A stretch of DNA of 64,000 nt from Amphiscolops sp. MND2022 (lineage: Eukaryota): contig OZ076409.1 of NCBI GenBank assembly GCA_964187785.1, positions 72,666,001-72,730,000 of the forward strand, given 5' to 3'. Below, in pieces: positions 1 to 64,000 of the stretch. Position 1 is the stretch's first letter, and the number at the start of each line of letters is the position of its first letter. Position numbers and translations under genes: made by a program. Under the pieces are notes generated by a model that saw only the letters and a list, made by a program, of their open reading frames with translations, was not told the DNA's origin and ran no database searches.

Positions 1-150
1 TTGTGCCTAAAAACTCTTTAAACACTTCTAACGCAACCTTACGCACCCAAAATGATCGAAAATGCTTTTCACAATGGTGACATGTGCTCTTTCTACGATC
101 CTGGCTGGACAAGGTTTGCATATTTTTCAAGTACCTGTCAGCTAAATCTT

Positions 151-198
151 GTGATAGCCTTTTCAGTTGGCCTTGTGTCAACTTGGGAAGGCTATCAC
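151..198. other. H1 bulged hairpin (representative; in A, B, B-long and G cassettes)
   Basis: GTGATAGCCTT-TTCAGTTGGC-CTTGT-GTCAACTTGGG-AAGGCTATCAC imperfect inverted repeat. Confidence 0.85.
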
Positions 199-491
199 AT
201 CAAAAAACCATCAACAAAAATAATTTTTGTTTATTGGATCTTACAGTCGATACTTTTTTTCGTGATTCTATACTACCGTTAGTATATTTCATCAGGTCAC
301 CTTACGATTGCATTCAGTCTTTGATAAAAACCTATGAACTCAAAGTCACATTTATATATTTTTTTGCCAGAAAATAACATCAAAAATATCTAGAATATAT
401 AAAATAGAGTCTTTAACATTTTTACGTTTCAAGTTTTTGCCGTTATTAGGCCAATCAACGTCCTAGAGCCACATCCTGCCACATACTGTAC

Positions 492-558
492 AACGCCACA
501 TAGTGTTGCGACGTGCACAGTCTGTGGGCATGCCGAGGCATGCCCTTCGACGACGTAT
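492..558 (+). other. Conserved ~70-nt subterminal core (representative of 22 copies, U0-U21)
   Basis: AACGCCACA-N-ACGCCCAC-GTCYGT-RGGCATGCCGAGGCATGCCY-TTCGACGACG, conserved across otherwise unrelated families A, B and C. Confidence 0.9.
526..545. promoter_or_regulatory. Putative p53-family response element / palindrome (representative of 22 copies)
   Basis: GGGCATGCCG AGGCATGCCC matches two adjacent RRRCWWGYYY half-sites at 19/20 positions; binding is not demonstrated. Confidence 0.4.
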
Positions 559-597
559 GCCGAATACCGCGGGCCTACGCCCGCGCTCCCCGGCTAG

Positions 598-656
598 GTG
601 GGCGGGGGTAATTCCCCAACAAAAAAATCGGCCGGCGGGTCGGGTCCTGCCGGCCG
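598..656 (+). other. 5'-terminal double hairpin (representative)
   Basis: GGGG-TAATT-CCCC, then CGGCCGGCGGG-TCGGGT-CCTGCCGGCCG (629-656); structural equivalents follow every junction. Confidence 0.85.
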
Positions 657-2587
657 TCCAAAATCAAAATCCTCCTAGTAGAAAACGGCATGTCAAACGA
701 GCTATTTTTTTATTTAACCATACGAATTTCACCATTTTTTGCATGCCGCCCTGAAATGGCCATACGAGACGAAGTTCCTGCTGACGTTTTGCGATGTAAA
801 TGTTTTATAAAAAGTTATGGCCGATTTGTCATTCACCTAGAAGGGTAAAATGAGGAAAATTTCAACAAAGTCGCTGATAACTCAAATTGTGTTAATTTTT
901 GGACTTTGACTGTGAAACAAGCTTGGAACCTTCATTTCGTGGCTGGGGCATTGGACTGAACACAAAAGATGTAAAGTTTTTACGTTTTTTGAAAATTCGA
1001 CATTTTTGAAATTTTTTTCACTACTATCAGTACCCCATATGTCAAAAACACCTAAGAAAAAAATTTTGATTTGCTTTAAATTGGAAACCTTGGTATCCAT
1101 GGTTTCTGTCGGAACCTACTCGCAGCCAAACACCCAACAGTTTGCATCCAATGTGAAAATAAAATTTTTTTCGGGGTCATAAGCGTTTCACAAGGATTTC
1201 TCAACTTAGTATTAATTTACAAAATGGTCATTTTGAACATAATATTTTCATCGAGGCTTGTCGGCTATAGCCTTAATGTTCTAGAACGGTCCCACTGGCA
1301 ACGTAGCAACCATTTATAGTAATATAAAAGGTTAAAAAAATTTTTTCACCCGGTCTTCAGTCATTTTTCAGACATTCGGAGCATAACTTAGAAAATTTTC
1401 GACCCAAATACCCATTTTTTGTCAGGTCGAAAATTAAAATTCAGCTATTGAAGCAAAATTATTTACTCTGACGTAACCAGTGGGGCCCATGATACTCAAA
1501 AACACCATTGGCACTGGTACCAATGGCTCCAATAACATATGAGTCGCGATAAGACGTTATTTTGAGCAATACGTCTCAATTGAGGTAAAGATCTCGCAAG
1601 CCAGCGATCACTGTGAAATGTGATTTCATCAAAAATTTACTCATTTTTGTCAATAACTATGTGCACAGAGTGCGTAGGGTGAGTTCCAGCACTATAATGA
1701 GGTTTTTGAAGGCATCGGGTTGCTCAAGGGGTGGTATGAGACATTTTTTTTCCTATATACTACTGTGTTTTCCAAAACTTGTAGCCCATTATCAGGAAAA
1801 AATAATTTGACAAAATACTTTCAACTACTTTATTCAAAGGTTACAAAATAGATGAACACTGTGGTTGATCAGAAACTTTCATCTCTTTCGTTTTCCGAAA
1901 TAATTCCCTTCGAATGTGTTACATTTGTAGCAGGAAAAAAAACTGAAACTAAAAAATACGCGATTTTGCTGAGATAGAATCACAATGGTTGCGCCTAAAA
2001 TCTCTTTAAATACTTCTAACGCGACCTTACGGACCCAAAATGATTGAAAATGCTATTCACAATGGTGACATGTGCTCTTTCAACAATCCTGGCTGGACAA
2101 GGTTTGCATATTTTTCAAGTACCTGTCAGCTGAATCTTGTGATAGCCTTTTCAGTTGGCCTTGTGTCAACTTGGGAAGGCTATCACATCAAAAAACTTTC
2201 AACAAAAATACTTTTTGTTTATTGGATATTGCTGTCGATACCTTTTTTTGTGATTCTATACTACCGTTAGTATATTCCATCAGGTCACCAGACGATTGTA
2301 TTCAGTATTTGATAAAAACTTATGAACTCAAAGTCTTTTTCATATGTTTTTTGTTCAAAAAAATTATCAAAAAAATTTATATTATAAACAATTGAGTCTT
2401 TAATTTTTTTATTTCCCAATTTTCCAGTGTTATTAGGCTCATCAACTTCCTACTGCAACATCCAGACATTAGTACAACGCCACAAAGTGTTGCGACGTCC
2501 ACCGTCTGTGGGCATGCCGAGGCATGCCCTTCGACGACGTATGCCAAAAATAGCGCCCTCCGCGGTCACTACCGCGGTAGCAGCTAG
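598..2587 (+). mobile_element. U1: family A cassette, 1990 bp
   Basis: Starts GTGGGCGGGGGTAATTCCCC; AT-rich body; H1 hairpin, core, CTAG end. Confidence 0.8.
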
Positions 2588-4789
2588 GTGGGCGGGGGTA
2601 ATTCCCCAACAAAAAAATCGGCCGGCGGGTCGGGTCCTGCCGGCCGTCCAAAATCAAAATCCTCCTAGTAGAAAACGGCCGGTCAAACGAGCTATTTTTT
2701 TATTTAACCGTTAGAATTTGGGTTTAGATTGCATGCGGCCATGAAATGGCCATACGAATGGAAGTTCCTGCTGACGTTTTGCGATTGAAACACTTTATAA
2801 AAAGTTATGGCCAATTTGTCATTCACCTAGAAGGGCAAAATGAGGAAAATTTTAACAAAGTCACTGATAACTCAAAATGTAATAATTTTTGGACTTTGAC
2901 AGTGAAACAAGCTTGGAACTGTCATTTCGTGGCTGTGGCATTGCACTGAACACAAAAGATGTAAAGTTTTCACATTTTTTGAAAATTCGACATTTTTGAA
3001 TTTTTTTTCACTACTATCAGTACACTATATGTCAAAAACGCCTCTGAAAAAAATTTTTATTTGCTTAAAATTAGAAACCTTGGTATCCATGGTTTCCGTC
3101 AGTACCTACTCGCTGCCAAACGCTCAACAGTTTGCATCCAATGTGAAAATATAATTTTTTTCGAGGTCATAGGTGTTTCACAAGGATTTCTCAACTTAGT
3201 ATCTATTTACAAATTGGTCATTTTGAACACATTATTTTCATCGAAGCGTGTCAGATACCACCCTAATGCTCACGAATGGGCCTACTGGCAACGTTGGAAC
3301 CATTTTTAGTAATAGAAAGTATTAAAAAAATATTTTCACCCGGTCTTCAGTCATTTTTCAGACATTCGGTACTTAACTTAGAAAAATTTCGCATCAAAAA
3401 CCCATATTTGGTAGGGTCGAAATTTGAAATTCAGTTTTTTATGCAAAATTATTAACTCTGACGTAACCAGTGGAGCCCATGATACTCAAAAACACGATTG
3501 GGACTGGTAGCAGTGGCTCCAATAACATATGAGCCGCGATAAGACGTTATTCAGAGCAAACGCTCTAAATCGAAGTAAACATCTCTGAAGCCTGGGATCA
3601 CAGTGAAATGTGATATCACCAAAAGTTTACTCTTTTTTGTCAATCACTATGTACACAGAGTGCGTAGGGTGAGTTTCAGGACTATAATGAGGTTTTTGAA
3701 GTAATCGCGCTGCTCAAGGGGTGGTATGAGACTATTTTTTCCCATATACTACTACATTTCCATAAATTTGCAGTCCATTGTCTTGGAAAGATAACTTCAC
3801 AAAAACAATTTTTCTACTCTATTCAGTTATTAGAATAAAGTTGAACACTGTGGGTGATCAGAAATGCTCAATTCTTTTGGTTTTTAAAAAAAATCCTTCG
3901 CATTCGTTACATTTGTGGAAGGAAGGTTATCAGTAGCTCCAAAAAAACGAAATTTAGCACGAACAGACATGCAACGATGCAAAGCAAAAACGTTTTTACA
4001 ACTTCCGACGTTATTATTTTACACAAGAAGTTCGAAAATATCATTCGCAATGCTGTCATTCGCTATATATACGATCGCGGTCAATTTACAAACATTTAGA
4101 TTTCATTGTTCTGCTTGAAAACCAATTTTTGTCAGGTCGAAATTTTAAATTTTGCCTGGGGAGCAATACCCTTCACGCTGAAGTAAACAGTGGGGCCCAA
4201 GTTACTCAAAAACAAGAAAGAGACTGCTACAATATGTCCTAATAACATATGGACCACGATAGTACGTTTTTCACACAAAAAACTCTCATCCGAAGTAAAT
4301 ATGTTGAAAGCTTTTAATCACCGTGAGAAGTGATTTCATCAAAAAATAACTCTTTTTTGTCAATCACTATTTACACAGAATTTGTAAAGTTAGTTTGAGT
4401 CAAGAAATGAGGCTTTACCGTAATATGGGTTGCTCAAGGTGTTATATAAGACAAAAACTTCCTCTTTTCTACTAGCTTCTTCAAATATTTCAACCCTTTG
4501 TCACAATAAGTTAATATTCAAAATCTCTTTGAAATGTATCTTTATGTTGGGGTGAAGTCTAAGAACAATAACTATGATCGAAGAATGCTAGTACTGGTGT
4601 TTGAACCATGTCCGGATGAACAAATCACAAAATCATCAAAAAATTGTTCCCTTTTTTGGTTATTTTGGCAGTACTAAAAATGTTAGCCGAGAAATAATTT
4701 TTTCGATGGCACCATTGGATTCCTCTCAAAAAGTTGGTTATATGACCTGTGTAATAACCCCGTATCTTTTCAATTTAAATATATTTAAA

Positions 4790-6140
4790 AAGCCAACTAT
4801 TTTGACCAAAATCCTAAAAATCATACCATTTCCTAAAAATTTTCAAATGCACCCCATTTGACGTATAAGATAAGCACAGAAAACTATCATATACCGATCA
4901 ACTCTACTCCTATTGTAGATTATTAGAATTTTGTTTAGAATGAATTTTGATGAATAATAAAAAAATTTTGAACCCTCCAAAAATGGGCCAAAATTACACG
5001 AAAAAATTGACCTTAAAATACCAAAATGTCAAAAAATCATCAAAACCCAGGCTTCTTGGGGTTCTATCAACTCCGCGTGGTCCACAGAGTATGCTAAAAC
5101 AGGTTTTACCCGTTTTTGAGCAATATGTGAAAAAGCCGACATTTTTGGGAAAGAAAAACATACCATTTCATGAAAAAATTCAAATGCACGTCATTTGCCG
5201 TATTAGAATAGCACAGAAAACTATCACATACCAATCAACTCTACTTTCTTTGCAGATGAACAGAATTTTGTTTAGAATAAATTTTACCGGATAATAAAAA
5301 AATTTGAATCCTTCAAAAATGGGCCAAAAATACACGAAAAAATGGACCTTAAAAATTTAAAATGTCAAAAAATCATCAAAACAACAGCTTCTTGGGGTTC
5401 TATCAACTCCACGAGGTCCACAGAGTATGCTAAAACAGGTTTTACCCGTTTTTGAGCAATATGTGAAAAAGCCGACATTTTTGGGAAAGAAAAACATACC
5501 ATTTCCTAAAAAAATTCTAATGCACGCCATTTGCCGTATGAAAATAGCACAGAAAACTATCACATACCAATCAACTCTACTTTCATTGCAGATGAACAGA
5601 ATTTTGTTTAGAATAAACTTTACCGGATAATAAAAAAAATTGATTCCTTCTAATATGGGCCAAAATTACACGAAAAAATGGACCTTAAAATTTTAAAATG
5701 TCAAAAAATCATCAAAACCACGGCTTCTTGGGGTTCTATCAACTCCACGTGGTCCACAGAGTATGCTTAACCCGGTTTTACCCATCTTTGAGCAAAATGT
5801 GAAAATACCGACATTTTTGGAAAAGAAAAACATGCCATTTTCTAATAAATTTCAAATGCACGCCATTTGCTGTATGAGAATAACACAGAAAGCTGTCACA
5901 TACCGATCAACTCTACTTCCATTGTAGATTATCAGAAGTTTGTTTAGAATAAATTTTGAAGGATAATAAAAAAATTTGAATCCATCAAAAATGGGCCAAA
6001 ATTACACGAAAAAATTGACCTTAAAATATCAAAATGTCAAAAAATCATCAAAACCACAATTTCTTGGCGTTCTATCAACTCCATATGATACCAAACCAGG
6101 TACTGCCAATCGTTTGAGTTATAATAAAAAAACGTCTTTT
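4790..6140 (+). repeat. About 4 copies of a 336-bp internal tandem repeat
   Basis: ATGGGCCAAAA anchor at 4983, 5319, 5655, 5991 (period 336); outer limits approximate. Confidence 0.9.
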
Positions 6141-6372
6141 TTGGCAAGAATTCCATACCATAAATAATAATCATGTTCCATATAAGAAGCGAATCATTTC
6201 AGATATATACCCTGTTCATTTTTTTAATATTACCGATTATTAATTTAATAGATGTTTTGAATGTGAGCTTCCTAAAAGGTTCAGGTGTGATGATACGTAA
6301 ATAGAACCTTAGTTTCATCGAAATCTCAATTGAATATGTCCAATCTTAACCATCAGATAACAAGAAACACTT

Positions 6373-6415
6373 AAGTACATTCCATCTCCCCATCGGGGGA
6401 GATGAGAATGTACTT
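6373..6415. other. H2 bulged hairpin (representative; in A-long and C cassettes)
   Basis: AAGTACATTC-CATCTCCCC-ATCG-GGGGAGATG-A-GAATGTACTT. Confidence 0.85.
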
Positions 6416-7347
6416 TCGAGAAGCCAAATACGTCCAACATTCAAACTTTTGTAACTTTGTATGTAACTCCTGAAACGAAGAAGGAATAAAATTGTTTCTG
6501 GTACATACATGAGTCTTTACTTCAGCTTCTATTTCTGCTGAACAAAACCATTCGACTCTTTTGCCGGAGTTAAGATCGATTGTATTACCCAGTGAACAAA
6601 GGCATGACTGAAAACGTTTACTACTTTGTTCATAATTTTCTGGCCTTCCGAAATGATGAAACGTCCACATAACTAAGATAGCAAGTGAATGACTGCGAAA
6701 TGCACCTTATTAGATGAGGTAAATAACGTGTAAAACTCTCCTTTATCCTAACATGAGGTTGAGTAATGATCATTTGAGAATAGTTTGATATGTGAATACA
6801 ATAGTATAAAACAAGTACATTTTATATGAATAACGCCGTGGAAAGCGTTCAGAAAGGACAGTAGGCTTGTTTGGAACATGTATGTGTGGTGTCCCTTGGT
6901 GGCGTTCGCTTAGTGTATATGTCGAGGGGTATTCGAGTTGTTATGATAGAATTTACACACAAGTCTTTTGTTTTTTGGTTTTTTTAAAATGTCGTTAAGT
7001 ACCTGCATTCTATCCCCTTCTCAGAGATGACGTGAAGTTACGTTTGCTAAATAAATGTCATCGAAAGATCACACTCCCGACGAAATTAACTATCTTAACA
7101 CGTGTTTAGAATTTTAAATAAACAACCGTATAAGATTTTTATATTTCATTGAGTTTGATGAGGTCTTTTGTTCTTCTCACTACTATTTCAACCAATACAC
7201 ATATCCGTTACCATATCACATGTCTCCATTAGTACAACGCCACATAGCGTTCCGACGCCCACAGTCTGTGGGCATGCCGAGGCATGCCCTTCGACGACGT
7301 ATGGCAAATGGAGCCATGCCCGCCGTCTTTACGGCGGTAGCGGCTAG

Positions 7348-9333
7348 GTGGGCGGGGGTAATTCCCCAACAAAAATTACGGCCGGCGGGTTGGGTCCTGC
7401 CGGACGTTCAAATAGCGCGAAGCATCTAGTAGAAAACAAGGAGTCCTGAAACAGCGATTTTAAAATTGAACCGTTAGAATTTGGTTTTAGATTGCATGCG
7501 GCCCTAAAATCCCCATACGAATGGAAGTTCCTGCTGGCGTTAAGCGATTGAAATAATATATAAAAAGTTATGGCCCATTTTTGGGTCACCGAGAAGGTCA
7601 AAACGAAGAAAATTTTAACTAAGTTGCTGATAACTCAAAATGTGTTAATTTTTGGACTTTGACTGTGAAACAAGCTTGGAACCTTCATTTCGTGGCTGTG
7701 GCATTGCACTGAACACAAAAGATGTAAAGTTTTCACATTTTTTGAAAATTCGACATTTTTGATTTTTTTTTCACTACTATCAGTACACTATATGTCAAAA
7801 ACACCTCTGAAAAATTTTTTTATTTGCCTAAATTTAGAAACCTCGGTATCCATGGTTTCCGTCAGTGCCTACTCGCTGCCAAACACTCAACAGTTTGCAT
7901 CCAATGTGAAAATAAAAATTTTTTCGAGGTCTTAGGTGTTTCACAAGGATTACTCAACTTAGTATCAATTTACAAATTGGTCATTTTGAACACATTATTT
8001 TCATCGAAGCGTGTCATATACCGCCCTAATGCTCACGAACGGGCCTACTGGCAACGTTGGAACCATTTATAGTAATAAAAAGTTTTAAAAATTTTTTTCA
8101 CCCCGTCTTCAGTCATTTTACACACTTTCGGTACTTAACTTAGAAAAATTTCAACCAAAAACCCATTTTTTGTCAAGTCGAAAATTCAAATTCAGCTTTT
8201 TAAGCAAAATAAATAAATCTGACATAACCAGTGGAGCCCATGAAACTCAAAACCACGATTGAGACTGGTATCAATGGCTCCAATAACATATGAGTCGCGA
8301 TAAGACGTTATTTTGAGCAAAACATCTCAATTGAGGTAAACATCTCGCAAGCCAGGGATCACTGTGAAATGTGATTTCATCAAAATTTTACTCATTTTTG
8401 TAAATCACTATGTGCACAGAATGCGTAGGGTGCGTTTCAGCACTATAATGAGGTTTTTGAAGGCATCGAGTTGCTCAAAGGATGGTATGAGACATTTTTG
8501 TCCCATATACTACTGTATTTTCCAAAATTTTTAGCCCAATATCTGGAAATACAAACTTGACAAAATACTGTCAACTACTTTATTCAAAGGTTACAATATA
8601 GATGAACACTGTGGTTGATCAGAAACTTTCATCTCTTTCGTTTTCCGAAATATTTCCCTTCGCATGTGTTACATTTGTAGCAGAAAAAAAAATCGAAACT
8701 GAAAAATACGCTATTTTGCTAAAATGGAATCGCAATGATTGTGCCTAAAAACTTTTTAAATACTTCTAACGCAACTGTACAGACCCAAAATGATTGAAAA
8801 TGCCATTCACAATGCTGACATGTGCTCTTTCTACGATCCTAACTGGACAAGTTTTGCATATTTTTCAAGTACCTGTTAACTGAATCTCGTGATAGCCTTT
8901 TAAGTTGGCCTTGTGTCAACTTGGGAAGGCTATCACATCAAAAAATTTTCAACAAAAATACCTTTTGTTTATTGGAAATGACAGTCGATATATAATTTCG
9001 TGATTCTATACTACCGTTAGTACCTTCCATTAAGTCACCTGACGATTGCATTCAGTCTTTGATAAATACCTATGAACTCGAAGTCATATTTATAATTTTT
9101 GTGCTAAAAATAAACATCAAAATTATCCAATTTATTTAAAATTGAGTCTTTAGCGTTTTTGTTTTACTTTTTCTACTGTTATTAGGCCCATCAACTTCCT
9201 ACAGCCACGCTCTCTGTCATACCGTACAACGCCACATAGTGTTGCGACGTGCACAGTCTGTGGGCATGCCGAGGCATGCCCTTCGACGACGTATGCCGAA
9301 TACCGCGGGCCTACGCCCGCGCTCCCCGGCTAG
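7348..9333 (+). mobile_element. U3: family A cassette, 1986 bp
   Basis: Collinear with U1, same terminal structures. Confidence 0.8.
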
Positions 9334-11319
9334 GTGGGCGGGGGTAATTCCCCAACAAAAAAATCGGCCGGCGGGTTGGGTCCTGCCGGACGTCAAATAG
9401 TGTGAAACATCCAGTAGGAAACGGCGACATAAATCAGCGATTTTAAAATTTAACCGTTAGAATTCGGACTTGGAGTGCATGCGGCCCCAAAATGCCCATA
9501 CGAATCGAAGTTCCTGCTGACGTTAAGCGATAAAAACATTTTATAAAAAGTTATGGCCCATTTTACGTTCACCTATAAGGGTAAAATGAGGAAAATTTTT
9601 ACAAAGTCGCTGATAACTCAAAATACATTAATTTTTGGACTTTGACTGTGAAACAAGCTTAGAACCTTCATTTCGTGGCTGTGGCATTGCACTGAACACA
9701 AAAGATGTAAAGTATTTACATTTTTTGGAAATTCGACGTTTTTGATTTTTTTTCACTACTATCAGTACACTATATGTCAAAAACACCTCTGAAAAAAATT
9801 ATTATTTGCTTAAAATTGGAAACCTTGGTATCCATGGTTTCTGTCGGAACCTACTCGCTGCCAAACACCCAACAGTTTGCATCCAATGTGAAATTAAAAT
9901 TTTTTTCGAGGTCTTAGGTGTTTCACAAGGATTTCTCAACTTAGTTTCAATTTACAAATTGGTCATATTGAACACAATATTTTCATCGAAGCTTGTCAGA
10001 TACCGCCCTAATGCTCACTAATGGGCCTACTCGCAACGTTGGAACCGTTTATAGTAATAGAAAGTTTAAAAAAAATATTTTCACCCGGTCTTCAGTCATT
10101 TTTCAGTCATTCGGAACTTAACTTAGAAAAATTTCGACCAAAATACCCATTTTTTGTCAGGTCGAAAAATCAAATTCAGATTTTTAAGCAAAATTATTTA
10201 CTCTGACGTAACTAGTGGGCCCCATGATACTCAAAAACACGATTGGGACCGGTACCAAGGGCTCCAATTTCATATGAGCCGCGATAAGACGTTATTTTGA
10301 GCAACACGTCTCAATAGAGGTAAACATCTCGCAAGCCTGGGGTCACAGTGAAAAGTAATTTCATCAAGAATTTACTCATTTTTGTCAATCACTATGTGCA
10401 CAGAGTGCGTAGGGTGCGTTTCAGCACTTTAATGAGGTTTTTGAAGGCATCGGTCTGCTCAAGGGGTGGTATGAGACATTTTTTTCCTGTATACTACTGT
10501 ATTTTCCAAAACTTTTAGCCAATTATCTGGAAAAACTAACTTGACAAAATACTTTCAATTACTTTATTCAAAGGTTACAATATAGATGAACTCTGTGGTT
10601 GATCAGAAACTCTCAACTATATTGTTTTCCGGAAAAAATCACTTCGCATCTGTTACATTTGTAGCATGAAAAAAAGCAGAATCTAAAAAATACGCAATTT
10701 TGTTAAAATAGAATCGCGTTGATTGTGCCTAAAAAGTTAATAAACACGTCTGACGCCACCATACAGACCCAAAATGATTGAACATGTCAATCAGAATGCT
10801 GACATGTGTTCTATCTACGATCATGGTTGGACAATTTTTGCATTATTTTCAAGTACCTGTTAACTGAATCTTGTGATAGCCTTTTAAGTTGGCCTTGTGT
10901 CAACTTTGGAAGGCTATCACATCAAAAAATTATCAACAAAAATGCTTTTTGTTTATAGAATGTTGTTTTCGATAAACATTTTTGCGATTCTAAGCTACCG
11001 TTAGTACCTTCCATGAGGTCAGCTAACGATAGCATGCAGTCTCTGATAAAAAAATATGAACTCAATTACATTTTTCTAAAATTTTTCTCAGAGAAAAGTA
11101 CAAATAAATAAAAACAATATAAAATTCTAATCTCAAACAACTATAAATTGTTTGTTTTTCACCGTAATCAGTTTACGACCCATCACCCTATGTCACGGCA
11201 CCGTCATTAGTACAACGCCACATAGTGTTGCGACGTGCACAGTCTGTGGGCATGCCGAGGCATGCCCTTCGACGACGTATGCCGAATACCGCGGGCCTAC
11301 GCCCGCGCTCCCCGGCTAG
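9334..11319 (+). mobile_element. U4: family A cassette, 1986 bp
   Basis: Collinear with U1, more diverged in its 3' third. Confidence 0.8.
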
Positions 11320-42005: not shown

Positions 42006-42167
42006 GTGCGGGGGGGAAACCCCAACAAAATTTTTGGAGGATTCGGGTAGGGTCCTGAATCCGAGTTCAGTGCTGCCAGCTTTCGTGTGCGGGGGGGAAA
42101 CCCCAACAAAATTTTTGGAGGATTCGGGTAGGGTCCTGAATCCGAGTTCAGTGCTGCCAGCTTTCGT
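42006..42167 (+). repeat. Exact 81-bp tandem duplication of the cassette 5' end
   Basis: 42006-42086 equals 42087-42167; both begin GTGCGGGGGGGAAACCCC. Confidence 0.95.
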
Positions 42168-51907: not shown

Positions 51908-52977
51908 GTGGTCAAGGGGGATGCCCATCAGAAAATATTGCGAGGCCGGGGAGGGTCCCGAGAGCCGAGCACATTCTATCAATTCCTACCTTCAGGATTG
52001 CGAAGTATTTTAACCGATCTCGAAATTCACCCGTAGGATTTGTCTGAAACTTTGCATGTGGCTTTATCTCAAAAATTTAAGAATTTTTTTCTGCTGACGT
52101 TTTTCCAGAAAAATTCATTTTGAAGGGTTTTTTTGCGTTTTTTTGGTTTTTTTCATCTTTTTTCATCTTTGATTAATCAATGACCGAATCAAAGGCCATT
52201 TTCACCATGAAGGAAAGCCCGTAGCGGCAAAGTGCACTTTTATGAAAATCATCAACGGTCAACGGTCTTTCGAACGGTCCGAAAAAATTTCCCCCCGGGG
52301 GAAACCAAAGTGCCGAAAAGTGCCAAAATTAATTTTTTGACTGAATCACTTTGATCAAATTGATGATTTGAGCAGCCGGAACGGTCCGCACGGTCTCGGA
52401 CAATAAGGTCAAAAATTGTCAGCATCCAATGGGGGTTCCAAAAATGTAATTCGTTCACCTGTAGGAGACATCAGAAAAAAGTTGATTTTTTGGGGTATAT
52501 GTCATTATGAGTGATTGGATGAGAAATAATTGTATCACTTTCAGTTGGATATGATGCAGCACAGGAAGCAGCTGCAGCAAACTAGAAACTGGTTATGGGG
52601 CTGGGGTTTACCCTCTGTATCGAGCAAAATAGCCCTAGGGCATAAGTTGTGCCAAAAAATGCCTCAAACTGATGATTTGGTTATTGCAAATCGATCAGCA
52701 AAATTTATTGTCACCGGTGTTCCGAGAGTTGCGCAGCATCTCGCAGGAACAACGGTGCTTGTTTAGAAAGCAAAAAACCACAAAATCCCTTGAGTTAAGT
52801 TGACGGCAGTCACCATAGACATTCACTCGTCAGGGTGATGATATTTATCGTTCAATCCCAGAATAACTTACAAAAAATTGCTAGCCTCAATATTTCTTTT
52901 TCATACTCCATTAGCAAAGGTTGCGCTGTTAAGTTTAGGCCTTTTACTAGCAGTGCTCTAAATCGCTCCATCGCTAG
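51908..52977 (+). mobile_element. U23: family E cassette, 1070 bp
   Basis: Starts GTGGTCAAGGGGGATGCCC; H3 hairpin 52710-52757; ends CCATCGCTAG. Confidence 0.75.
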
Positions 52978-54048
52978 GTGGTCAAGGGGGATGCCCATCA
53001 GAAAATATTGCGAGGCCGGGGAGGGTCCCGAGAGCCGAGCACATTCTATCAATTCCTACCTTCAGGATTGCGAAGTATTTTAACCGATCTCGAAATTCAC
53101 CCGTAGGATTTGTCTGAAACTTTGCATGTGGCTTTATCTCAAAAATTTAAGAATTTTTTTCTGCTGACGTTTTTCCAGGAAAATTCATTTTGTAGGGTTT
53201 TTTTGCGTTTTTTTGGTTTTTTTCATCTTTTTTCATCTTTGATTAATCAATGACCGAATCAAAGGCCATTTTCACCATGAAGGAAAGCCCGTAGCGGCAA
53301 AGTGCACTTTTATGAAAATCATCAACGGTCAACGGTCTTTCGAACGGTCCGAAAAAATTTCCCCCCGGGGGAAACCAAAGTGCCGAAAAGTGCCAAAATT
53401 ATTTTTTTGACTGAATCACTTTGATCAAATTGATGATTTGAGCAGCCGGAACGGTCCGCACGGTCTCGGACAATAAGGTCAAAAATTGTCAGCATCCAAT
53501 GGGGGTTCCAAAAATGTAATTCGTTCACCTGTAGGAGACATCAGAAAAAAGTTGATTTTTTGGGGTATATGTCATTATGAGTGATTGGATGAGAAATCAT
53601 TGCATCACGTTGAGTTGCATTTGATGCAGCACACGAAGCAGCTGCAGCGAACTTGAAACTGCTTAGGGGGGTAGGGTTTACTATCTGTAACAAGCAAAAT
53701 ATCCCTTGGGCAAAAGGTATGCCAAAAAGTGCCTCAAAGTGCTAATTAAGTTGTTGCAAATCGGCTAGCAAAATTTATTGTCACCGGTGTTCCGAGAGTT
53801 GCGCAGCATCTCGCAGGAACAACGGTGCTTGTTTCGAACGCAAAACCCAACATACCTCTTTGGTGACGTGACGGAGGTCACCATTGGCCTTTTTCGGCAG
53901 TGTGATGATATTATTATTGTTGAATTGTGAACAACTTACACAAAAGATTTAGCGTGGGATATTTGTTTGTTTCATACTTCAGTAACAAACTTTCAACCGT
54001 TTCGTTTAGGCCTCTACCTAGCAGTGCTCTAAATCGCTCCATCGCTAG
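52978..54048 (+). mobile_element. U24: family E cassette, 1071 bp
   Basis: First ~620 bp almost identical to U23, then diverged; H3 hairpin 53780-53827. Confidence 0.75.
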
Positions 54049-55080
54049 GTGGTCCGGGGAAGTACCCCACAGGAAAATGCGAGGCGCGGGGAGGGTCCTG
54101 CTAGCCGAGCCTAAAAAATAGGATTCTAAAAACTAATTATATGCCAGGGGGGTACAGGAACACGATCTCGGAATTGAACCGTAGGATTTTGCTGAAATTT
54201 TGCATGCAGCCATAAATGGAAATTCTAAGAATTTTTTCCTGCTGGCACTTTTTTGAGAAAACGCAATTTCGGAAGTTATGAGCAAATGATCGGTTTTTTC
54301 ACCTATTTTCGGTACTTTTTCGCTGCAATATCTGCAGCATGTGCACACAATTGGCTGATACTTTACATGCGAGGCATAAATGATGTTAGGTGTTTGCATG
54401 TCAAAAATCATTAGGCTGGTGATACTAGGCTGGGAGATAGAATCGAAAGTGATACCGGGAAATGGTGAAATCTCCGGTCATCGCGTCATAAATTCCGAAC
54501 TTTTGTATAGATGGTCTTTACTTAAGTGGTAGCAGTACAGTTGATGTGTTTTTAACATCACGTGATGAGGATAAAAAATAAAAAATAAAAAAGTTCTACA
54601 TAAGTTCTACCAGAATTCGTAAAATGGAGAATTTTTGCCAAAAAATTTTTTTCCGCGTTTTTAATGAAATAACCTACCAGGAATTCAAAAATCACGTTAT
54701 TTATTGTGCCAGCGGTGTGAAAATGGGTCATAAGTTCAACATTCACCAAATTTCTATACCAGTTTTACCAAACATTGAGATAAAACTGTTCAGTATACAT
54801 TAAACTCAATATGTGACTTTAATTTTTTGGAATCATTGTCACCGGTGTTCCGAGGGATGCACAGCAGCTCGAAGGAACAACGGTGACCCGAAGGGGGGCT
54901 GTAGGTACCTTTTAAATCGTACGGCAGTCACTGTATAGTTTTCTTCGTCAAGGTACTACATGTGATTGTGACATGTAAGATGTTCACGAAAGGAGCCCAA
55001 AATGAACAAGAATTACATGAATTAACATCCGTAGAGTACCGAACGCGCCCTCTGGTAATTGGTACCTTTCCCTCCACTGG
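54049..55080 (+). mobile_element. U25: family F cassette, 1032 bp
   Basis: Double 5' hairpin, conserved 5' block, H3 variant 54838-54887, ends CTCCACTGG. Confidence 0.7.
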
Positions 55081-58000
55081 GTGGTCCGGGGCTTAATTTG
55101 CCCCACAATAGTCATTGCGAGGCCTGGGGAGGGTCCCGGAGCCGAGCGCTATATACAAAATGCATCCATGGTAGACCGGGAGAAAAACAAGCGATTTTCC
55201 AATCTAACCGTTAGATTTCCATGAAACTTTGCACACATACATAAAATCAAATTCTAAGAACTTTTTTCCCCTGACGTATCATGATTGAAACATTTGTTGA
55301 AAAGTTATGTGCAAATGATCGTGTTTTTTGGCCATTTTTCGCATTTTTCACGTAGTAGCTCCACACTTTACGCTATGCATTTGGCCCATTTTTTGCGTGC
55401 GAGGCATAAATGATGTCATGCTTACACATGCCAAAAATTATTTCTTAATTCGCAACAGGAGTGGAGATATGGCGGATAATATTGGCGGAAAATTTAACGA
55501 TTACGAAACTTTGCACACATTTGGCCAACATTTGTTTCAAAAATGACAAAAATCAAAAAGTCCGCGGATTGCGTTGAAACTTGGCACACAGGTAGTAAAA
55601 CAAATTTTAAGAACTTTTTTCTTCTGACGTTTTTCCGAAAAATTGCATCTTCAACCTATATTTGCAATGTTTCGGGTTTTTTGATTCAACGTGATTTATC
55701 ACTCACATATTCAGAGTCCATTTTCAGCATGAAGCAACGCAGATACCGCCAATGTGCACATTTTGCAAAATCATCAACGGCCAACGGTCTACCGAACGGT
55801 CCAAAAAAATTTTCCCCTCGGGCCCAATCAAAGTGGCCAAAAGTGCCAAATGGTTTTTTCCAACAGTATCACCATTACAAAATTGATGATTTGACCAGGA
55901 GCAACGGTCCGCACGGTCTCGGACCATAAGGTGAAAAAGTGTCAGTGAGTTATGGTGACGACCAAAATGACATCAGTTGACCTCTAAGAGGCCTCTGGAA
56001 AAATTTGATTTTTTTGAGTCACGGTCCGAGTTGATCTGTTACGTTGAATGAACATTTCATAATCATGTTACTCATAACCGAGTACAGATAGCACCGTGGG
56101 TCATCTTTATGAAAATGAACATTGGGCAGCGGTCTAACGACTGAGTGCAAAAATAATACCTTAGTTGCCATAGGGAAGGAAAAAAATTTTCAGAAGTGTT
56201 GTTTTCAATTTTTCATGTCGACTCGCAGTTACAAAATTGTGATTTTCTCTTCAGCAACGGTCCGAACGGTCTGGTACCATAAGATAAAAATTTGTCAGTG
56301 TGACATGGTGGCGCCCAAAAACACATCAGAACACTGGTAGGAAGCCTCTGAAAGAGTTTCGAATTTTCACGTGGGTCCGAGAGTTATAGTGTCACATCGT
56401 AACTACATTTCGGGTATGCATATCTCCTCACAGAGTACAGATAGCATCATGGGTCACCTTTTCGAAAAAGAACGTGGGCCACTGGTCTATCGATTGGTTA
56501 GAAAAAGTTTTCAGTCACTGCTGCACGGCGTGAATAATATGCCAATATGGGGTATTTAGCATTTTTTTGCACGACTCGGACCTACAAAAGCCTATTTCTG
56601 CTGCACCAACGGTTTGTACGGTCTTCGACCATAAGGTCAAAAAGTGTCAGTGTGCTATGGTGACGCCCAAAAACCCACCAGTACACTTGTAGAGTGCTTC
56701 CGAAAAATTTTGGATTTTTTAGGTGAGTCCGAGAGTTATAGAGAGTTATGTTGTCACATCGAAACTACATTTCGGGAATGTATATCTCCTGACAGAGTAC
56801 AGATACCAACATGGGTCATCTCTTGGAAAGTGAACGTCGGCCACTGGCCTACCAAATGGTGATAAAAAGTTTTCACCAGTTGCTACAGGGAGTGATAAAA
56901 GTGCTTACATGGGTTACATAGCATTTTTTCAGGCGACTCGGACTTACAAAAAGCTCATTTGCTCGCCAACAACGGTCTCTACGGTCTCCACTCAATGGGT
57001 CGAAAATTTTTTGTGGGCTATGGTGACGCTCAAAAACCCATCAGTTTACTTGTGGGATGATTCTGTAAAAATTTCGTGTTTTCGTGCAGACTATGTTACA
57101 TATTACATTGGGAACCGTGTTTTTTTCTCTCCAAAATCATGTTTTTGAGTGCCCAAAAACTGTTTTTAAAGCCCAGTAGCCATCTAAAATGTACTTTTGC
57201 ATAACACGGGGTGTGAATAACGTGAAAAAAGTGTTCACTGTGGATTTGGAGTTATGTCGAAAAAATCAGCTGCCATTAGACGTTACATTACAGAAAATCG
57301 TACCTTACATATCGATTCATGGGTTGAGTCAAAAACAGCTAAAGTTCTTTTTCAGTCAATCAAGACTCTTTTTTGTTCACAACCAAGTGTACTGCTGACG
57401 TCGAACCTATTTTGACCTTCCACAATGGTTATAGTGCAATTTTGAGGTACAAAAGCCTCGTTGACAAACAAAATTCCAAGATGAAATTGCTTTCCAAATC
57501 ATTTTTTGAAGTATAGGAACGCCATTTTCAGCCGACAACCATCAAATATCCACTTCTCTTGGCCCAGTGGCTTGTGAAAAATACAACTGGGCATTGACAA
57601 GGCACAAGGACCTTACTTCGAGTAGTCATGTGCCACAATATTCGCTAATCGATAGCAAATTTTGTTGAAAATTGATACAACATCACATTTTTGGTGGACT
57701 CGAAATGACAAATTGGAGCTTCTGCAGCAACTATAGGCTTTTAGTGCAACTCAGTGGCACTGTTACTTAGGAAAATACGGTCTACAGTAGTTTCATGCTA
57801 ATTTTTCAGAATCTGAGGTACATAAAAATATCATACTGAATAGACATATGACTTAAACATTGGAATTTTTCCGGTTGTGTCACCACTTTTTTGGTATCAG
57901 CGGTCCTACCAACACCGTTTTTGGTCTAAAACTAAACCCGAGGCTCAACCAAGATATATATGAGACTTGTAAAATCAATGCAAGGACTTTCGACATGTCA

Positions 58001-59975
58001 AAAGTACTGATAAGAAGAGAAACTTCTCAAAAAATCATGGTATGTGTCATATTCCATTCCACGTTTTTTAATCGGTGCTTGTCGGTTATGGTATTAACGC
58101 TGAACAACGACCTCACTGACAACAAACAACTCGTTTATAGTCATTAAAAGTGTTTATAATACAACCATGCTTGGTCTGGACACATTTTTTATCCCATTCG
58201 TTCGTAACAATAAAAATTTTTTCCCCAATAACCCAATTTTTGTCAGGTCGAAAACTGATTTCTCGTGTTTTGAACAACATTATTGTGTTTGACGTAACCT
58301 GTGGCCTCCAAAATACTGAAAAAGAGATATATGACTGGTATCAAATGCTTTAGTGACATGTGAGCCACGATAACACGTTTTGCAAAGAAAAATTCAACTT
58401 TCAACTGAAAATTTCGAAGACACATTTTCACAATAGAAACAGAATATATAACAATCTAACCTAATTCCCGTCAATTACTATTAATATAGTATCATTGTTG
58501 CGAATATGAGGTCCATACAGGGGTGTATGGGAAAAAAATGGCGCATAAAGCATTGTGTAACACAAAGTTTACCAAAGTACTAAGAATTTGTCACGGTTTC
58601 TTTGCACTCTAACTCAAAAATTTGATGGTGTAAACATCAATGAGCAGTTCAATTTAGTACGGTTTATCAACTGTGTATCTTTTTCAAAGTGCACAATCTT
58701 TCTGTTGTTCCAAACTCCTTTGTTAGGGCTGAAAAGTGTCATATGTTTTACAACGCAATGTTCATTAAAAGATACATTAGCAAAGACCGAATCAACTTCA
58801 CAGCAGGTAATCAAATTCTCAATACGTTTTTCAGTACTTGGATTTCGCAGACTATATAGATTTCATTTGCATTTTTATAAAGACTTTATAACTGAATCTT
58901 GCATTTTTATAAAGAGTTTATAAAAAAATTTCGTGATAGCCTTCCAAGTTGGCCTTCGGCCAACTTGGAAGGCTAACACTACAAACACCAAAAACCAGGA
59001 GTTCCTCTACTCTCAAAATAGGCGGGGAAACTTTCATTGAACTTTCCTTTCTCACATTAATTGATAATTTCAGGACATGAGCATTTCTATTCGCTATACG
59101 ATGACCACCATTGTGTTCAATAAATAAATCTTTCCTTGTGACGCTTAAAAATACCATAAAAACTAACTTGAAACATATGAATTGTATGTGGAACGTACAT
59201 TTATCTAACCAATGAGTGGCTACCCCTATTGGTTCCACGAAATCCTCTACCCCTCCACCAGACAGTACGTTACATCATACGTTGATGTCTTCCACAGTGG
59301 TCACATAGGGCAAAAAAAAGGAAATGGAGTTGGAGTGTATGTATTTCTAATGCATTTAAGTCAGCCACTTGTGATAGGAAAGGTTCAAAACTACGGAATA
59401 AATCTATCCTAGCTGAAAATTGTTTCGGCAAACACATGGCACACAAAAATACTTCAAAAATTTCCAGCAGTCAATTCCTTCCACAAAAATTTTTCTGTCC
59501 GATTGTGAATAATTTCAATATTTGGAATTCGCCAGTCCCGTCATCTTCGCATCTCACCTCGGTCACAACAGAGCTTTCTTTTTTTCAATTCTCTCCACCC
59601 ATTTCCACATAACGAGGCAGTTACGTTCACTATTTGGAGTGTTATTGGAGATTATAAGGCATTAATCACTGTAATGAACAATTACTTCTAATGTTGAAAC
59701 TCTTCCAGTTTTCTTTGTAAATTGTCAAAGTAGAACATCGCTTTTATTCAGCAGGAACGTCGCGTTGGCTTGCAGATTGATGGATAAGTGACAAGTAGCA
59801 TTGTAAGGCACCACGTGTCGTGGAGATGCCAAATATGAAATACGTTGAACACAACAAAGACTACTTTTGTCAACAGAACGGAAAACGAAAATTTTATTGT
59901 TGAAAATTCTTTTCTTTCTATACACATTTTCCTCGCTTCTCGGCAGTGTAACTGCAACAACCTCGCCTCCACTGG
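55081..59975 (+). mobile_element. U26: family G cassette, 4895 bp
   Basis: Double 5' hairpin, ~355-bp internal repeats, A-related module near 58240, H1 hairpin 58933-58979, ends CTCCACTGG. Confidence 0.7.
55880..57080 (+). repeat. Diverged ~355-bp internal tandem repeats (4 anchors)
   Basis: CAACGGTCCG-ACGGTCT...TGTCAGTG anchor near 55903, 56256, 56608, 56970. Confidence 0.75.
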
Positions 59976-62900
59976 GTGGTTGGGGCGTTATTCCCCACGA
60001 AGTTCGCGGCCGCGGGAGACGGGACCCGCGGACCGCCCATCCAATGCAAAAATATACACTCTAAACAGCACCATTATAAACACGATCTCGAAAATGAACC
60101 GTAGGATTGTCTTGAAATTTTGCATACGGATAGAAGAGAAAATTCTAAGAACTTTTTCCTGCTGGCACTTTTCCGAAAAAAATGTCCGTCATGGGTTTTT
60201 TTGGGTTTTTTTGGTTTTTTCTCATCTTTCTCATCTTTGATTAATCAATCACTGAATCAAAGGCCATTTTCAGCATGAAGGAATGCCCGTAGCGGCAAAG
60301 TGCACTTTTACAAAAATCATCAACAGTCAACGGTCTTTCGAACGGTCTAAAAAATTTTCCCCCGGGGGGCATCCAAAGTGCCGAAAAGTGCCAAAATATT
60401 TTTTTGGTCTGAATCATTTTGATGAAATTGTTGATTTGAGCAGCAGGAACGGTCCGCACGGTCTCGGACCATAAGGTCAAAAATTGTCAGTGAGTTATGG
60501 TGACGACCAAAATGACATTGGTTGAGCTGTAGGAGGCCTCTGAAAAAATTTGAATTTTTTGAGTCTACAATCCGAGCTGAACTGTTACGTATTATGAACT
60601 TTTCAGTACTATGTTGCCAATGACCGAGTACAGATAGATGCATGGGTCAGCCTTATTGAAATGAACATTGGGCACTGGGCTACCGATTGAGTGCAAAAAT
60701 TATAGCCTAGTTGCTGTAGTCGAAGAAAAAAATTCTCAGAAGTGTTACTTTCAATTTGTCATGTTGACTCGGAGTTACAAAAAGGTGATTTTCTCGCCAA
60801 CAACGGTCCGAACGGTCTTCGACCATGAGATCAAAAATTGTCAGTGTGCTATGGTGACGCCCAAAAACCCAGCCGAACAAGCGTAGGATGCTTCTGAAAA
60901 AATTTCGAATTTTTACGTCGGCCCAAGAGTTATTGTGTTACATCGTAACAACATTTCGTGTATGCATATCTCCTGACAGAGTACAGATAGCATCATGGGT
61001 CACCTTTATGAAAGGGAACGTGGGCCACTGGTGTACTGCATGGTTATAAAAAATTTAGACTAAGTGCTGCACGGCGTGAATAATATGCCAAGATGTGTTA
61101 TTTACGATATTTTAGCACGACTCGGACTGACAAAAAGCCTATTTCTTCCCCAGCAACGGTCCAAACGGTCATCAAGTGTAAGGTCAAAAAATGTCAGTGT
61201 GACATGATGGCGCCTAAAAACCCACCAGAACATTGGTAGGAAGCTTCTGGAAAAAATTCGAATTTTTACGTGGGCCCGAGAGTTATGATGTTGCATCGTA
61301 GCAACATTTCGTGTATGCATATCTCCTGACAGAGTACAGATAGCATCATGGGTCACCTTTTTGAAAAAGAACGTGGGCCACTGGTCTATCGATTGGTTGT
61401 AAAAAGTTTTCAATCACTGCTGCACGGCGTGAATAATATGCCAATATGGGGTATTTAGCATTTTTTTGCACGACTCGGACCTACAAAAGTCCCATTTCTG
61501 CTCCACCAACGGTCCGTACGGTCTTCAACCATAAGGTCAAAAAGTGTCAGTGTGCTATGGTGACGCCCAAAAACACACCAGTACACTTGTAGAGTGCTTC
61601 CGAAAAATTTTGGAATTTTTAGGTGAGTCCGAGAGTTATAGAGAGTTATGTTGTCACATGGTAACTACATTTCGGGAATGTATATCTCCTGACACAGTAC
61701 AGATACCAATATGGGTCATCTTTTGGAAAGTGAACGTGGGCCACTGGCCTACCGAATGATGATAAAAAGTTTTCACCAGTTGCTACAGGGAGTGATAAAA
61801 GTGCTTACATGGGTTACATAGCATTTTTTCAGGCGACTCGGACTTACAAAAAGCTCATTTGCTAGCGAACAACGGTCTGTACGGTCTCCACTCAATGGGT
61901 CGAAAATTTTTTGTGGGCTATGGTGACGCTCAAAAACCCATCAGTTTACTTGTGGGATGATTCTGTAAAAATTTAGTGTTTTCGTGCAGACTATGTTACA
62001 TATTACATTAGGAACCGTGTTTTTTTTTTCACCAAAATCATGTTTTTGAGTGCCCAAAAACACTTTTTTAAAGCCCAGTAGCCACCTAAAATGTTCTTTT
62101 GCATAACATGGGATGTGAATAACGTCAAGAAAGTGCTCACTATGGATTTGGAGTTATCTCGAAAAAATCAGCTGCCATTAGACGTTACATTACAGAAAAT
62201 CGTACCTTACATATCGATACATGGGTTGAGTCAAAAACAGCTAAAGTTCTTTTTCAGTCAATCAATACTGTTTTTTGTTCACAACCAAGTGTACAGCTGA
62301 CGTCGAACCTTTTTTGACCTTCCACAATGGTTATAATGCGATTTTGAGGGACAAAAGGCTTGTTGACAAACAAAATTCCAAGATGAAATTGCTTTCCAAA
62401 TCATTTTTTGAAGTATAGGAACGCCATTTTTTGCCGACAACCATCAAATATCCACTTCTCTTGGCCCAGGGGCTTGTGAAAAATACAACTGAGCCTTGAC
62501 AAGGCACATGGACCGTAATTCGAGTAGTCATGTACCACAACATTTGCTAATCGATAGCAACTTTTGTTGAAAATTGATACAACATCACATTTTTGGTGGA
62601 CTCGAAATGACAAAATGGAGCTTTACCAGAAACTATTGGCTTTTAGTACAACTCACTGGCACTGTAAGTTACGAAAATACGGTTTACAGTAGTTTCATGC
62701 TACTTTTTCAGAATCTGAGGTACATAAAAATATCATACTGAATAGACAAATAACTTCAACATCGGAATTTTTCCGGATGTGTCACCACCTTTTTGGTATC
62801 AGCGGTCCTACCAACACTGCTTTTGGTCTAACACTAAACCCAAGGATCAACCAAGATGTATATCAGACTTGTAAAATCAATGCAAGGTCTTTCGACATGT

Positions 62901-64000
62901 CAAAAGTACTGATAAGACGAGAATCTTCTCAAAAATTCATGTTATGTGTCATATTCCATTCCACGTTTATTAATCGGTGCTTGTCGGTTATAGTATTAAC
63001 GCTCAACAACGAGCTTACTGACACGAAACAACTTGTAGACAGTTATTAAAAGTATGTATAATTCCAACATGCTCGGTTTTGGCAGATTTTTCATCCCATT
63101 AGTTCTTAACGTGTAAATTTTACTTCCCAAAAACCCTATTTTTGTCAGGTCGAAATTCGAATTTTCGTGTTTTGATCAATATTATTGTGTCTGACGTAAC
63201 CTGTGGCCTCCAAAATACTCAAAAACAATAGTATGACTGCTATCAAATGCTTCAGTGACATGTGGGGCACGTTAACACGTTTTGGTAAGAAAAATTCCAC
63301 TTCGAAGTGAAAATTTGGAAGACACATTGTGTCAATAAAAACTGAATACATGCAAAACGTTCCTAACTCCCGTCAATTAGTATTGACGTAGTAACTGTGT
63401 TGCGAATTAGAGGTCTATAGAGTGGTGTATGGGAAAACTGTGGCGCATAAAGCGTTGTTCATAACAAAGTTCTTCCAATAACTACAATTGTGTTTTCAAA
63501 AGTTTCACTATATTTCACATATTCACAGAATGTGATTGATGCTACCTAGTAATGGAAAACCACTGTCGAATCTTCTTTAGTGGACTCAACAGTCCTGAAA
63601 ATCACAGACATACATCACGTTTCATAATTATACACTCGAGGCTACACAATAATTTATTTCCGCTAGTTGCTGATAACTGAATTTCCTGATAGCCTTCCAA
63701 GTTGGCCTTGTGTCAACCTGGGAAGGCTATCAGCACAAAACACAAAGAACACAGCTTGTTGTTGCCTCTAATTTGCTGTTGTTTTCGTTAAGATTTTATG
63801 GTACCGTTTCTTTATAACATGTGGTTAACATAAGACAATTTCTCTCTGTATGGAACGACATCCATTGATAAGAAAGATTACAGTTTTTTAGTTGAAAAAG
63901 ACCTTGAAACTACTGCGCAATTCATGCAATTTATCCAAAACGTTCATTCATTTCAATAATTTGCGTCCCATTGAGCGTCACAAACCACTATACCTCCTTT
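59976..64000 (+). mobile_element. U27: family G-related cassette, truncated by the window end
   Basis: E-like 5' region, G-type repeats and body, H1 hairpin 63687-63732. Confidence 0.7.
60430..61980 (+). repeat. Diverged ~354-bp internal tandem repeats (5 anchors)
   Basis: Same anchor near 60448, 60801, 61155, 61508, 61871. Confidence 0.75.

Follow-up and report, generated by a model that had tools for sequence, protein, structure and literature searches.

What are the repeated cassettes that fill this stretch of the Amphiscolops sp. MND2022 genome, and why does each of them carry one hairpin? The stretch, a window of 64,000 nucleotides (contig OZ076409.1, positions 72,666,001 to 72,730,000, here numbered 1..64000 on the + strand), is an unbroken head-to-tail array of 28 non-coding units with 27 junctions in a single orientation. 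Two of the units run past the window edges, and the longest open reading frames (ORFs) in the window reach at most 181 amino acids. An earlier note on this DNA had described four interchangeable hairpin types, H1 to H4, one to a cassette. We found that the cassettes are non-autonomous Helitrons, that autonomous partners encoding RepHel proteins share the arrays, and that the hairpin lies at about one fifth of the element length from the 3' end, a rule that is well supported in this genome. Both the Helitron identity of the cassettes and the length scaling of the hairpin's place had been missed by the earlier note.

The array around the window was unbroken over at least 264 kb, the whole of the region examined, in a genome of 1.07 Gb. 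Units are joined at CTAG-GTG or CTGG-GTG (CTRG-GTG), and this junction pattern had 4,708 exact matches genome-wide as against none for a reversed control. The features that define a junction in the window are:

526..597 (+), right terminal sequence of the A type, with a 20-nt palindrome, a short GC hairpin and CTAG
594..601 (+), example junction CTAG-GTGG, where the 3' end of one element meets the 5' end of the next
598..660 (+), left terminal sequence, with the GTG start and two hairpins, a short one of G/C and another whose loop is G-rich

Unit 5' starts are GTGG or GTGC. At the 3' side, 291 of 292 parsed units finish in CTAG or CTGG, a figure that is partly by construction (the parser tolerated one mismatch), and six array or solo ends, located by their end sequence, likewise finish in CTAG. 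Array units are nearly all monomers with exact ends. A short hairpin shortly before CTRR is present in the A, B and A-long ends and is not evident in D. The 20-nt palindrome, found 60-90 nt before the 3' end (window 526-545; most A, B and C ends), is common to many non-autonomous and several autonomous families.

Gaps in the arrays hold elements of 12-27 kb with cassette-like ends and an ORF of 2,180-2,853 amino acids, whose product has Helitron_like_N (PF14214), PIF1 (PF05970) and GIY-YIG domains. HUH and YxxKY motifs were found in this RepHel, its helicase matches the Helraiser structure 7lcc, and among solved structures the C-terminal GIY-YIG domain is closest to SLX1 (E 2.5e-11). Since the same ends and RepHel-encoding partners occur in the same arrays, the cassettes are non-autonomous Helitrons. 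The autonomous elements also carry accessory ORFs of about 220 and 330-470 amino acids; the three that were scanned (L033:7219-8235, L042:223-1389 and L042:2362-3027) had no Pfam match. Behind the RepHel stop of the clade with 2,373-2,386 amino acids lie tandem structured units of 45-80 nt (C1:24008187, L042-L043; relatives L059-L070 and L125-L130). Some have a T-rich loop in a GCCC..GAGCC frame, and a similar unit follows the last ORF; the T-rich loop units resemble a histone-mRNA stem-loop.

All 28 window units hold one intact hairpin of the H1-H4 set, and the four motifs lie where the earlier note had placed them, with H3 at 52712, 53782 and 54840 and H4 at about 51636-51681. H1 occurs in 20 cassettes (A, B, B-long and G), H2 in four (A-long and C), H3 in three and H4 in one; H1 starts 435-464 nt before the end in 2-kb units. 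In the following list the fraction is the distance of the hairpin from the 3' end divided by the cassette length:

153..196 (+), H1, A cassette starting before the window
2141..2184 (+), H1, A cassette 598-2587, fraction 0.214
6375..6413 (+), H2, A-long cassette 2588-7347, 0.200
8891..8934 (+), H1, A cassette 7348-9333, 0.212
10875..10918 (+), H1, A cassette 9334-11319, 0.213
15118..15156 (+), H2, A-long cassette 11320-16090, 0.200
17632..17675 (+), H1, A cassette 16091-18077, 0.214
19610..19653 (+), H1, B cassette 18078-20073, 0.222
21604..21647 (+), H1, B cassette 20074-22065, 0.221
23577..23620 (+), H1, B cassette 22066-24039, 0.224
25012..25050 (+), H2, C cassette 24040-25317, 0.225
29114..29152 (+), H2, A-long cassette 25318-30078, 0.199
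29731..29773 (+), destabilised H2 relic (-6.9 against about -18 kcal/mol for intact H2), same A-long cassette, at 0.07
31621..31664 (+), H1, A cassette 30079-32067, 0.214
33612..33655 (+), H1, A cassette 32068-34062, 0.215
35596..35639 (+), H1, B cassette 34063-36055, 0.220
37596..37639 (+), H1, A cassette 36056-38037, 0.212
39580..39623 (+), H1, A cassette 38038-40027, 0.214
41571..41614 (+), H1, A cassette 40028-42005, 0.209
43618..43661 (+), H1, B cassette 42006-44080, 0.213
46293..46335 (+), H1, B-long cassette 44081-46871, 0.200
48381..48424 (+), H1, B cassette 46872-48841, 0.223
50375..50418 (+), H1, B cassette 48842-50835, 0.220
51636..51681 (+), H4, D cassette 50836-51907, 0.234
52712..52757 (+), H3 with GCGNAGC apex, E cassette 51908-52977, 0.228
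53782..53827 (+), H3, E cassette 52978-54048, 0.229
54840..54885 (+), H3, F cassette 54049-55080, 0.212
58935..58977 (+), H1, G cassette 55081-59975, 0.208
63688..63731 (+), H1, G cassette of 4,737 bp from 59976, ending beyond the window, 0.212

The idea of a single hairpin per cassette stands for intact copies; A-long carries in addition a second H2 near its end, at 0.07, which is destabilised in 12 of 12 copies (-1.7 to -6.9 kcal/mol). Among 327 non-autonomous units, a single H1-H4 motif was present in 307, no such motif in 17 and H2 together with H1 in two; one unit was a dimer left by a missed junction. Seven of the 17 motif-less units hold an H3 variant at 0.22, five belong to a 3.07-kb family with a fifth hairpin type at 0.21, and in the remaining five the top DNA hairpin lies within 0.19-0.24. 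The earlier note's statements that no cassette combines two types and that there are four types are correct for the window and fail outside it, where the two H2 plus H1 units (a local fusion) were found and where the fifth type of the 3.07-kb family is joined by about ten more in autonomous elements. A motif search found H1-H4 in none of 26 autonomous units (a 27th, with an apparent match, was a missed junction), and autonomous elements each carry a strong hairpin of their own. H1 and H2 are each combined with several kinds of element ends. Genome-wide pattern matches numbered 2,918 for H1 (many counted on both strands) and 2,528 for H2, and the four H1 sites examined outside arrays lay within older copies of the same elements.

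The hairpins fold and are conserved as units. As + strand DNA, their z-scores were -6.6 (H1), -8.5 (H2), -5.2 (H3) and -4.3 (H4), with none of 200 shuffles as stable, and all four also fold far better than shuffles as RNA. That each is an island of conservation in diverged flanks was borne out when conservation was measured: between families of one type, identity was 0.86 for H1, 0.89 for H2 and 0.76 for H3, against 0.42-0.52 in the flanks, a value like that between families of different types. Inside each of seven families, diversity was 0.000-0.100 in the hairpin and 0.144-0.422 in the flanks, so that the hairpin varies a third as much or less. The covariation check that had been proposed gave two-sided changes in 7 of 19 pairs of H3 (14 variants) and 6 of 20 pairs of H1 (27 variants), with scores reached by 0 of 500 and 1 of 500 shuffles respectively, scores of a kind that relatedness among variants inflates (the tool's own warning). 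The H3 apex is GCGNAGC, with N variable, in 58 of 64 small-family copies, and several autonomous hairpins likewise close as C-GNA-G on the + strand. The + strand, the one that a Helitron peels, folds better than its complement in 34 of 48 families, and for H3 in 19 of 19 variants.

The regression on which we relied used hairpins defined by motif alone, blind to position. The distance from the apex to the 3' end followed d = 0.203 L + 24 nt, where L is element length (r2 0.9975; 27 families, 1.0-6.5 kb), and H1 alone gave a slope of 0.204 over 12 families. Across the 307 single-motif units the fractions were 0.199-0.239. In a motif-free test that left the terminal 110-115 nt aside, the most stable stem-loop of the DNA fell within 0.19-0.24 for 334 units out of a first 354 and for 45 out of a later 54 (379/408). 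Of the 29 misses, 13 have an H3/H2 variant at about 0.22 that was overlooked by the single-loop filter, three were missed junctions, seven were autonomous elements and six were true deviants. Of 25 autonomous elements, 18 had the in-range hairpin as their top-ranked one and 24 had it among their best three. Autonomous hairpins sit between genes or at a gene end, and they may directly follow RepHel, an accessory ORF or the last ORF without any change in the fraction. One homologous hairpin lies at 0.200-0.204 in eight of eight elements of 12.3-13.7 kb, and both of its arms change together. With increasing element length, the distance to the 3' end rises from about 220 nt to about 5,400 nt.

A prediction was set beforehand for elements whose 5' ends had not been seen. 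The length derived from the hairpin came within 6% for five of six elements (predicted 23.9, 27.3, 26.2, 23.4 and 23.6 kb; found 23.1, 25.7, 27.0, 22.7 and 23.0 kb). A seventh element proved to be a 34-kb recombinant. This 34.1-kb recombinant (C3:3769845; L079, L186, L117, L099, L100 and L118) has had its autonomous 3' part replaced by the H1 tail of a 4.9-kb cassette; its own hairpin lies at 0.211, and it was excluded as a clean test because of the added H1 tail.

Cassettes related to autonomous elements suggest that the position is under selection. A-long (4.76 kb) shares its first 3.5 kb and last 115 nt with a 27-kb autonomous element, one G family (4.74 kb) shares its first 3.5 kb and last 30 nt with a 22.7-kb autonomous element, and the 3.07-kb family shares its first 0.9 kb and last 86 nt with a 14-kb autonomous element. 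In all three the autonomous hairpin has been lost, and H2, H1 and the fifth type, respectively, stand at the new one-fifth point. The A-long tail contains a stretch that is 70-73% like the H2 region of a 1.27-kb family. Among the deviants, spread was examined for three forms: the H2 plus H1 fusion has two occurrences, 5.6 kb apart, and an 18.8-kb element with a 3.2-kb insertion that displaced its hairpin to 0.16, and a G cassette that lost H1, each have one. The other two deviants, of 1,112 and 1,452 bp, are neighbours on C8. The failure of the three forms to spread is supportive of selection on the hairpin and on its place, and is not proof of it, as such rarity is also expected if most mutations are recent. 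Together with covariation and conservation, the non-spread of hairpin-less and two-hairpin forms supports the proposal that the hairpin is an essential cis-signal acting on single-stranded nucleic acid.

The arrays themselves point to insertion at the elements' own ends. Family D, which is young, occurs beside a wide variety of neighbours on several contigs, and in every case it lies precisely at a junction, so that units appear to insert singly at one another's ends. At true array edges, host 5' flanks end in CTRG in six of seven cases, and host 3' flanks read TTG, GTG, ATG, ATT and ATG (an NTG start in four of five), from which the target resembles the element's own junction. These observations suggest that the lineage inserts at its own ends, building mixed arrays on a multi-megabase scale. 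Elements cluster in multi-megabase zones (C1 at about 70.5-76.5 Mb, C2 at 102-104 Mb and C3 at 2.4-3.9 Mb). A strand switch within an array was seen at C1:23,977,000-23,980,000, the sole inversion among the regions examined. At window 42006-42167 and at C1:72740203, the first 81 or 58 nt of the element are exactly duplicated, which suggests re-initiation at the left end. A 2.19-kb family (C1:72730713 and 72757770) has an atypical left end, GTGGAGG, with H2 still at 0.227.

What, then, might a hairpin at a constant fraction do? Of the functions that the earlier note had listed, an origin for the second strand fits best. We put at about even the chance that the hairpin is a single-stranded DNA origin at which second-strand synthesis starts on the peeled strand, timed to end with the peeling. 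In such a scheme the partner RepHel would nick at the GTG end, stay bound and peel the + strand 5' to 3'. Once four fifths had been peeled the hairpin would fold and be primed, by host primase or from a 3'-OH made by the SLX1-like domain, and the minus strand would be copied back to the 5' end over 0.8 L while the last 0.2 L was peeled. If copying on the bare strand ran about four times faster than peeling, both would end together, and the strand would close at CTRG-GTG as a largely double-stranded circle. With the hairpin too early, copying would run off an unjoined end; with the hairpin too late, an inactive single-stranded circle would remain. The +24 nt intercept may represent a fixed lag. 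New copies would insert directly after CTRG, usually at the end of another element, and arrays would build.

Published work on related systems is consistent with parts of this scheme. In rolling-circle plasmids and phages the second strand is started at a separate hairpin origin (PMC5714925), and GCGNAGC forms an extra-stable mini-hairpin in DNA, reported from the primase site of phage G4 and from a plasmid single-strand initiation (ssi) site (PMC13037366). Work on Helraiser found that it moves the + strand alone, that donors and circles transpose efficiently only when double-stranded, and that single strands introduced by transfection undergo no conversion; its authors suggest either a dedicated primer or synthesis of a lagging strand along the strand being peeled (PMC5876387).

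Several points weigh against a second-strand origin at one fifth of the length. On position, the hairpin near 0.2 ranks only second to fourth in the seven autonomous elements counted above, it is weak in a 14.15-kb family (at 0.213-0.216), and the sixth blind length (14.0 kb predicted, 13.5 kb found) was obtained only via the second-ranked hairpin; moreover, the autonomous elements are mutually related, so their positions are not independent. On strand, the bias is mixed: H2 is near-symmetric (+ better in 27 and - better in 17 of 50 variants), H4 is near strand-neutral and slightly favours the - strand, and the H1 of the G family carries a GAA loop on the - strand. Base skew gave no clear saw-tooth at the hairpin; of 29 non-autonomous families, 18 had the higher G skew in their 5' arm. 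On mechanism, hairpins of different types have no sequence motif in common for a primase to read, the fourfold ratio of rates is an assumption made to match the data, neither priming nor a nick nor a replication intermediate was observed, and in Helraiser, which transposes, no hairpin of this kind has been reported.

The most serious rival, which we nonetheless regard as unlikely, places at the hairpin a point of meeting and resolution. A process from the 5' end and one about four times slower from the 3' end would converge there, as at a replication terminus between unequal arms, and the SLX1-like domain would cut and release the intermediate. This accounts for the same proportional rule. It also draws on the likeness of the RepHel C-terminus to SLX1, a structure-specific enzyme whose reading of shape would suit interchangeable, unrelated hairpins, and on the several hairpins that fold about equally on both strands. 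However, the available text of the literature examined (PMC4778049, PMC5876387) does not describe a second process from the Helitron 3' end, the + strand bias and mini-hairpin loops suit a signal on the peeled strand, and skew shows no clear switch at the hairpin.

It is improbable that the hairpin is instead a helicase pause or checkpoint that prepares termination and makes RepHel halt at the following CTRG rather than read into the neighbour. Such a checkpoint would suit the almost exclusively monomeric units with exact ends and families such as D with no obvious hairpin just before CTAG, and read-through by Helraiser is common when its terminal hairpin is lost (PMC4778049). It predicts a fixed distance to the end, however, against the observed growth to several kilobases.

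A role as RNA, whether as a small-RNA precursor (which the earlier note had listed) or a transcript 3'-end signal, appears slightly less probable again. The stems of 17-22 bp, their G-U-compatible pairs, the strong RNA folding and the location of autonomous hairpins between genes or at a gene end would all agree with it. Against this, no Rfam match at the gathering score was found in the 64-kb window, the 0.2 hairpin was ranked first more often by DNA than by RNA energies in 16 long units, and H3 keeps a DNA mini-hairpin loop. The fraction is also constant across gene contexts, and proportional placement has no explanation under an RNA role.

Very improbable, finally, is the suggestion of a helper-specificity or packaging tag matching a cassette to one autonomous family or virus, for although the types are several, discrete and each common to unrelated cassettes, the autonomous partners lack H1-H4 and have hairpins of their own, H1 and H2 each go with several end types, no capsid domain was found in the five partner ORFs scanned and no relative among viral contigs, and position is left unexplained.

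We then considered where the lineage stands among Helitrons. It has the RepHel protein (HUH with two catalytic tyrosines plus PIF1, encoded in the array partners outside the window) and the 3' CTRR end of Helitrons. It shares with HLE1 elements such as Helraiser the fusion of an HUH-Y2 Rep with PIF1, the 3' CTRR and the presence of non-autonomous derivatives, and its array junction corresponds to the head-to-tail circle junction of HLE1 Helitrons (PMC4778049, PMC5876387). Unlike HLE1, units start with GTGG or GTGC rather than TC and insert after CTRG rather than between A and T, Pfam Helitron scores are very weak, the GIY-YIG domain is SLX1-like, the tandem arrays are mixed and an internal hairpin stands at a fixed fraction of length. 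With HLE2 (Helentron, Helitron2) the lineage shares a large RepHel with extra nuclease domains and internal tandem repeats in non-autonomous copies (PMC11417382). It differs in its CTRG end, in host flanks that are not the TT target, and in lacking DUF6570, the mark of HLE2, which was absent from two partial RepHels of the lineage and six database relatives and present in three control Helitrons of the same genome. GIY-YIG appears in the available text of the HELIANO report only in one moss HLE2 family, where it was captured (PMC11417382). The RepHel core shows 20-36% identity to an HLE2 from this genome, which a quick tree with a single HLE2 and without any HLE1 reference places very far away. 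No terminal inverted repeats were seen by eye in the ends; no formal search was made.

A third Helitron clade, from Paramecium, is also distinct from HLE1 and HLE2; its ORFs are very long, its arms are filled with satellites, its insertion is targeted and of strict orientation, and many of its derivatives lack ORFs (PMC13085455). It differs in its CCAA end and telomeric-repeat target, and its main text, so far as available, describes neither GIY nor an internal position rule (PMC13085455). This clade is the nearest in style, a likeness judged by description and not by sequence. Outside transposons, the mitochondrial light-strand origin is a stem-loop exposed part-way through strand displacement, and in bacterial replichore balance a site is placed in proportion to replicon length; their ratios are about 2:1 or 1:1, not 4:1, and we know of no demonstration that either scales over a 26-fold size range with interchangeable hairpins. 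The single-strand origins (sso) and ssi sites of bacterial replicons resemble the hairpins here in lying on the displaced strand, apart from the nick site, with host enzymes starting the second strand (PMC5714925, PMC13037366), and in their GCGNAGC-type loops (PMC13037366). They are bacterial, and the available text of these sources reports no length scaling of position (PMC5714925, PMC13037366); the function of the hairpins here is a proposal. The lineage is a Helitron variant outside the criteria of HLE1 and HLE2, and we found no precedent for the one-fifth rule: neither arrays of this sort nor an internal hairpin whose place scales with length turned up in a full-text literature search without Repbase, supplements and most subscription journals, sources that could affect the classification.

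A protein search gave 80 relatives, many with GIY-YIG, among them records named Perkinsus and hagfish. Metagenomes gave 43 loci, of which 17 were examined, and among these no complete element had both ends proven. The left-end hairpin loop, GGG(T/G)AGGGNCC (window 598-660), is shared with five metagenome contigs (L164, L165, L170, L177 and L179), three of which have CTRG and then TTAG at their likely start. This hairpin, conserved as far as these distant relatives, is probably a binding site for RepHel and a clade marker. As leads only, L170 with L169 gives a fraction of 0.211-0.214 when the element is taken to stop at the first CTAG behind its last ORF and 0.218-0.264 with later CTRG sites, and L165, with tentative ends, gives 0.186 or 0.227 for its two hairpins. 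In metagenomic L169, L170, L172, L173, L175, L178 and L180, several ORFs together make up RepHel, which may reflect introns or a multi-gene layout, and further ORFs lie on the opposite strand.

How the second strand is formed on a peeled Helitron strand is an open question, for which the hairpin offers a precise candidate site and a quantitative prediction. With a confidence somewhat short of even, we propose that these elements represent an undescribed and widespread Helitron lineage with a 4:1 rule, in which one hairpin at 80% of the length starts the second strand and the speed ratio of two DNA-copying machines sets the architecture of the element. Relatives with the same left-end hairpin occur in other eukaryotes. 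Whatever the mechanism, scaling of position over a 26-fold range of length, maintained while about 15 unrelated hairpins have replaced one another, is a design rule for which we found no description in any transposon, and it constrains how much DNA the elements can capture, and where. If the proposal is true, the hairpin would give eukaryotic rolling-circle transposons their first identified second-strand origin, and its place would be a built-in ruler of the relative rates of polymerase and helicase.

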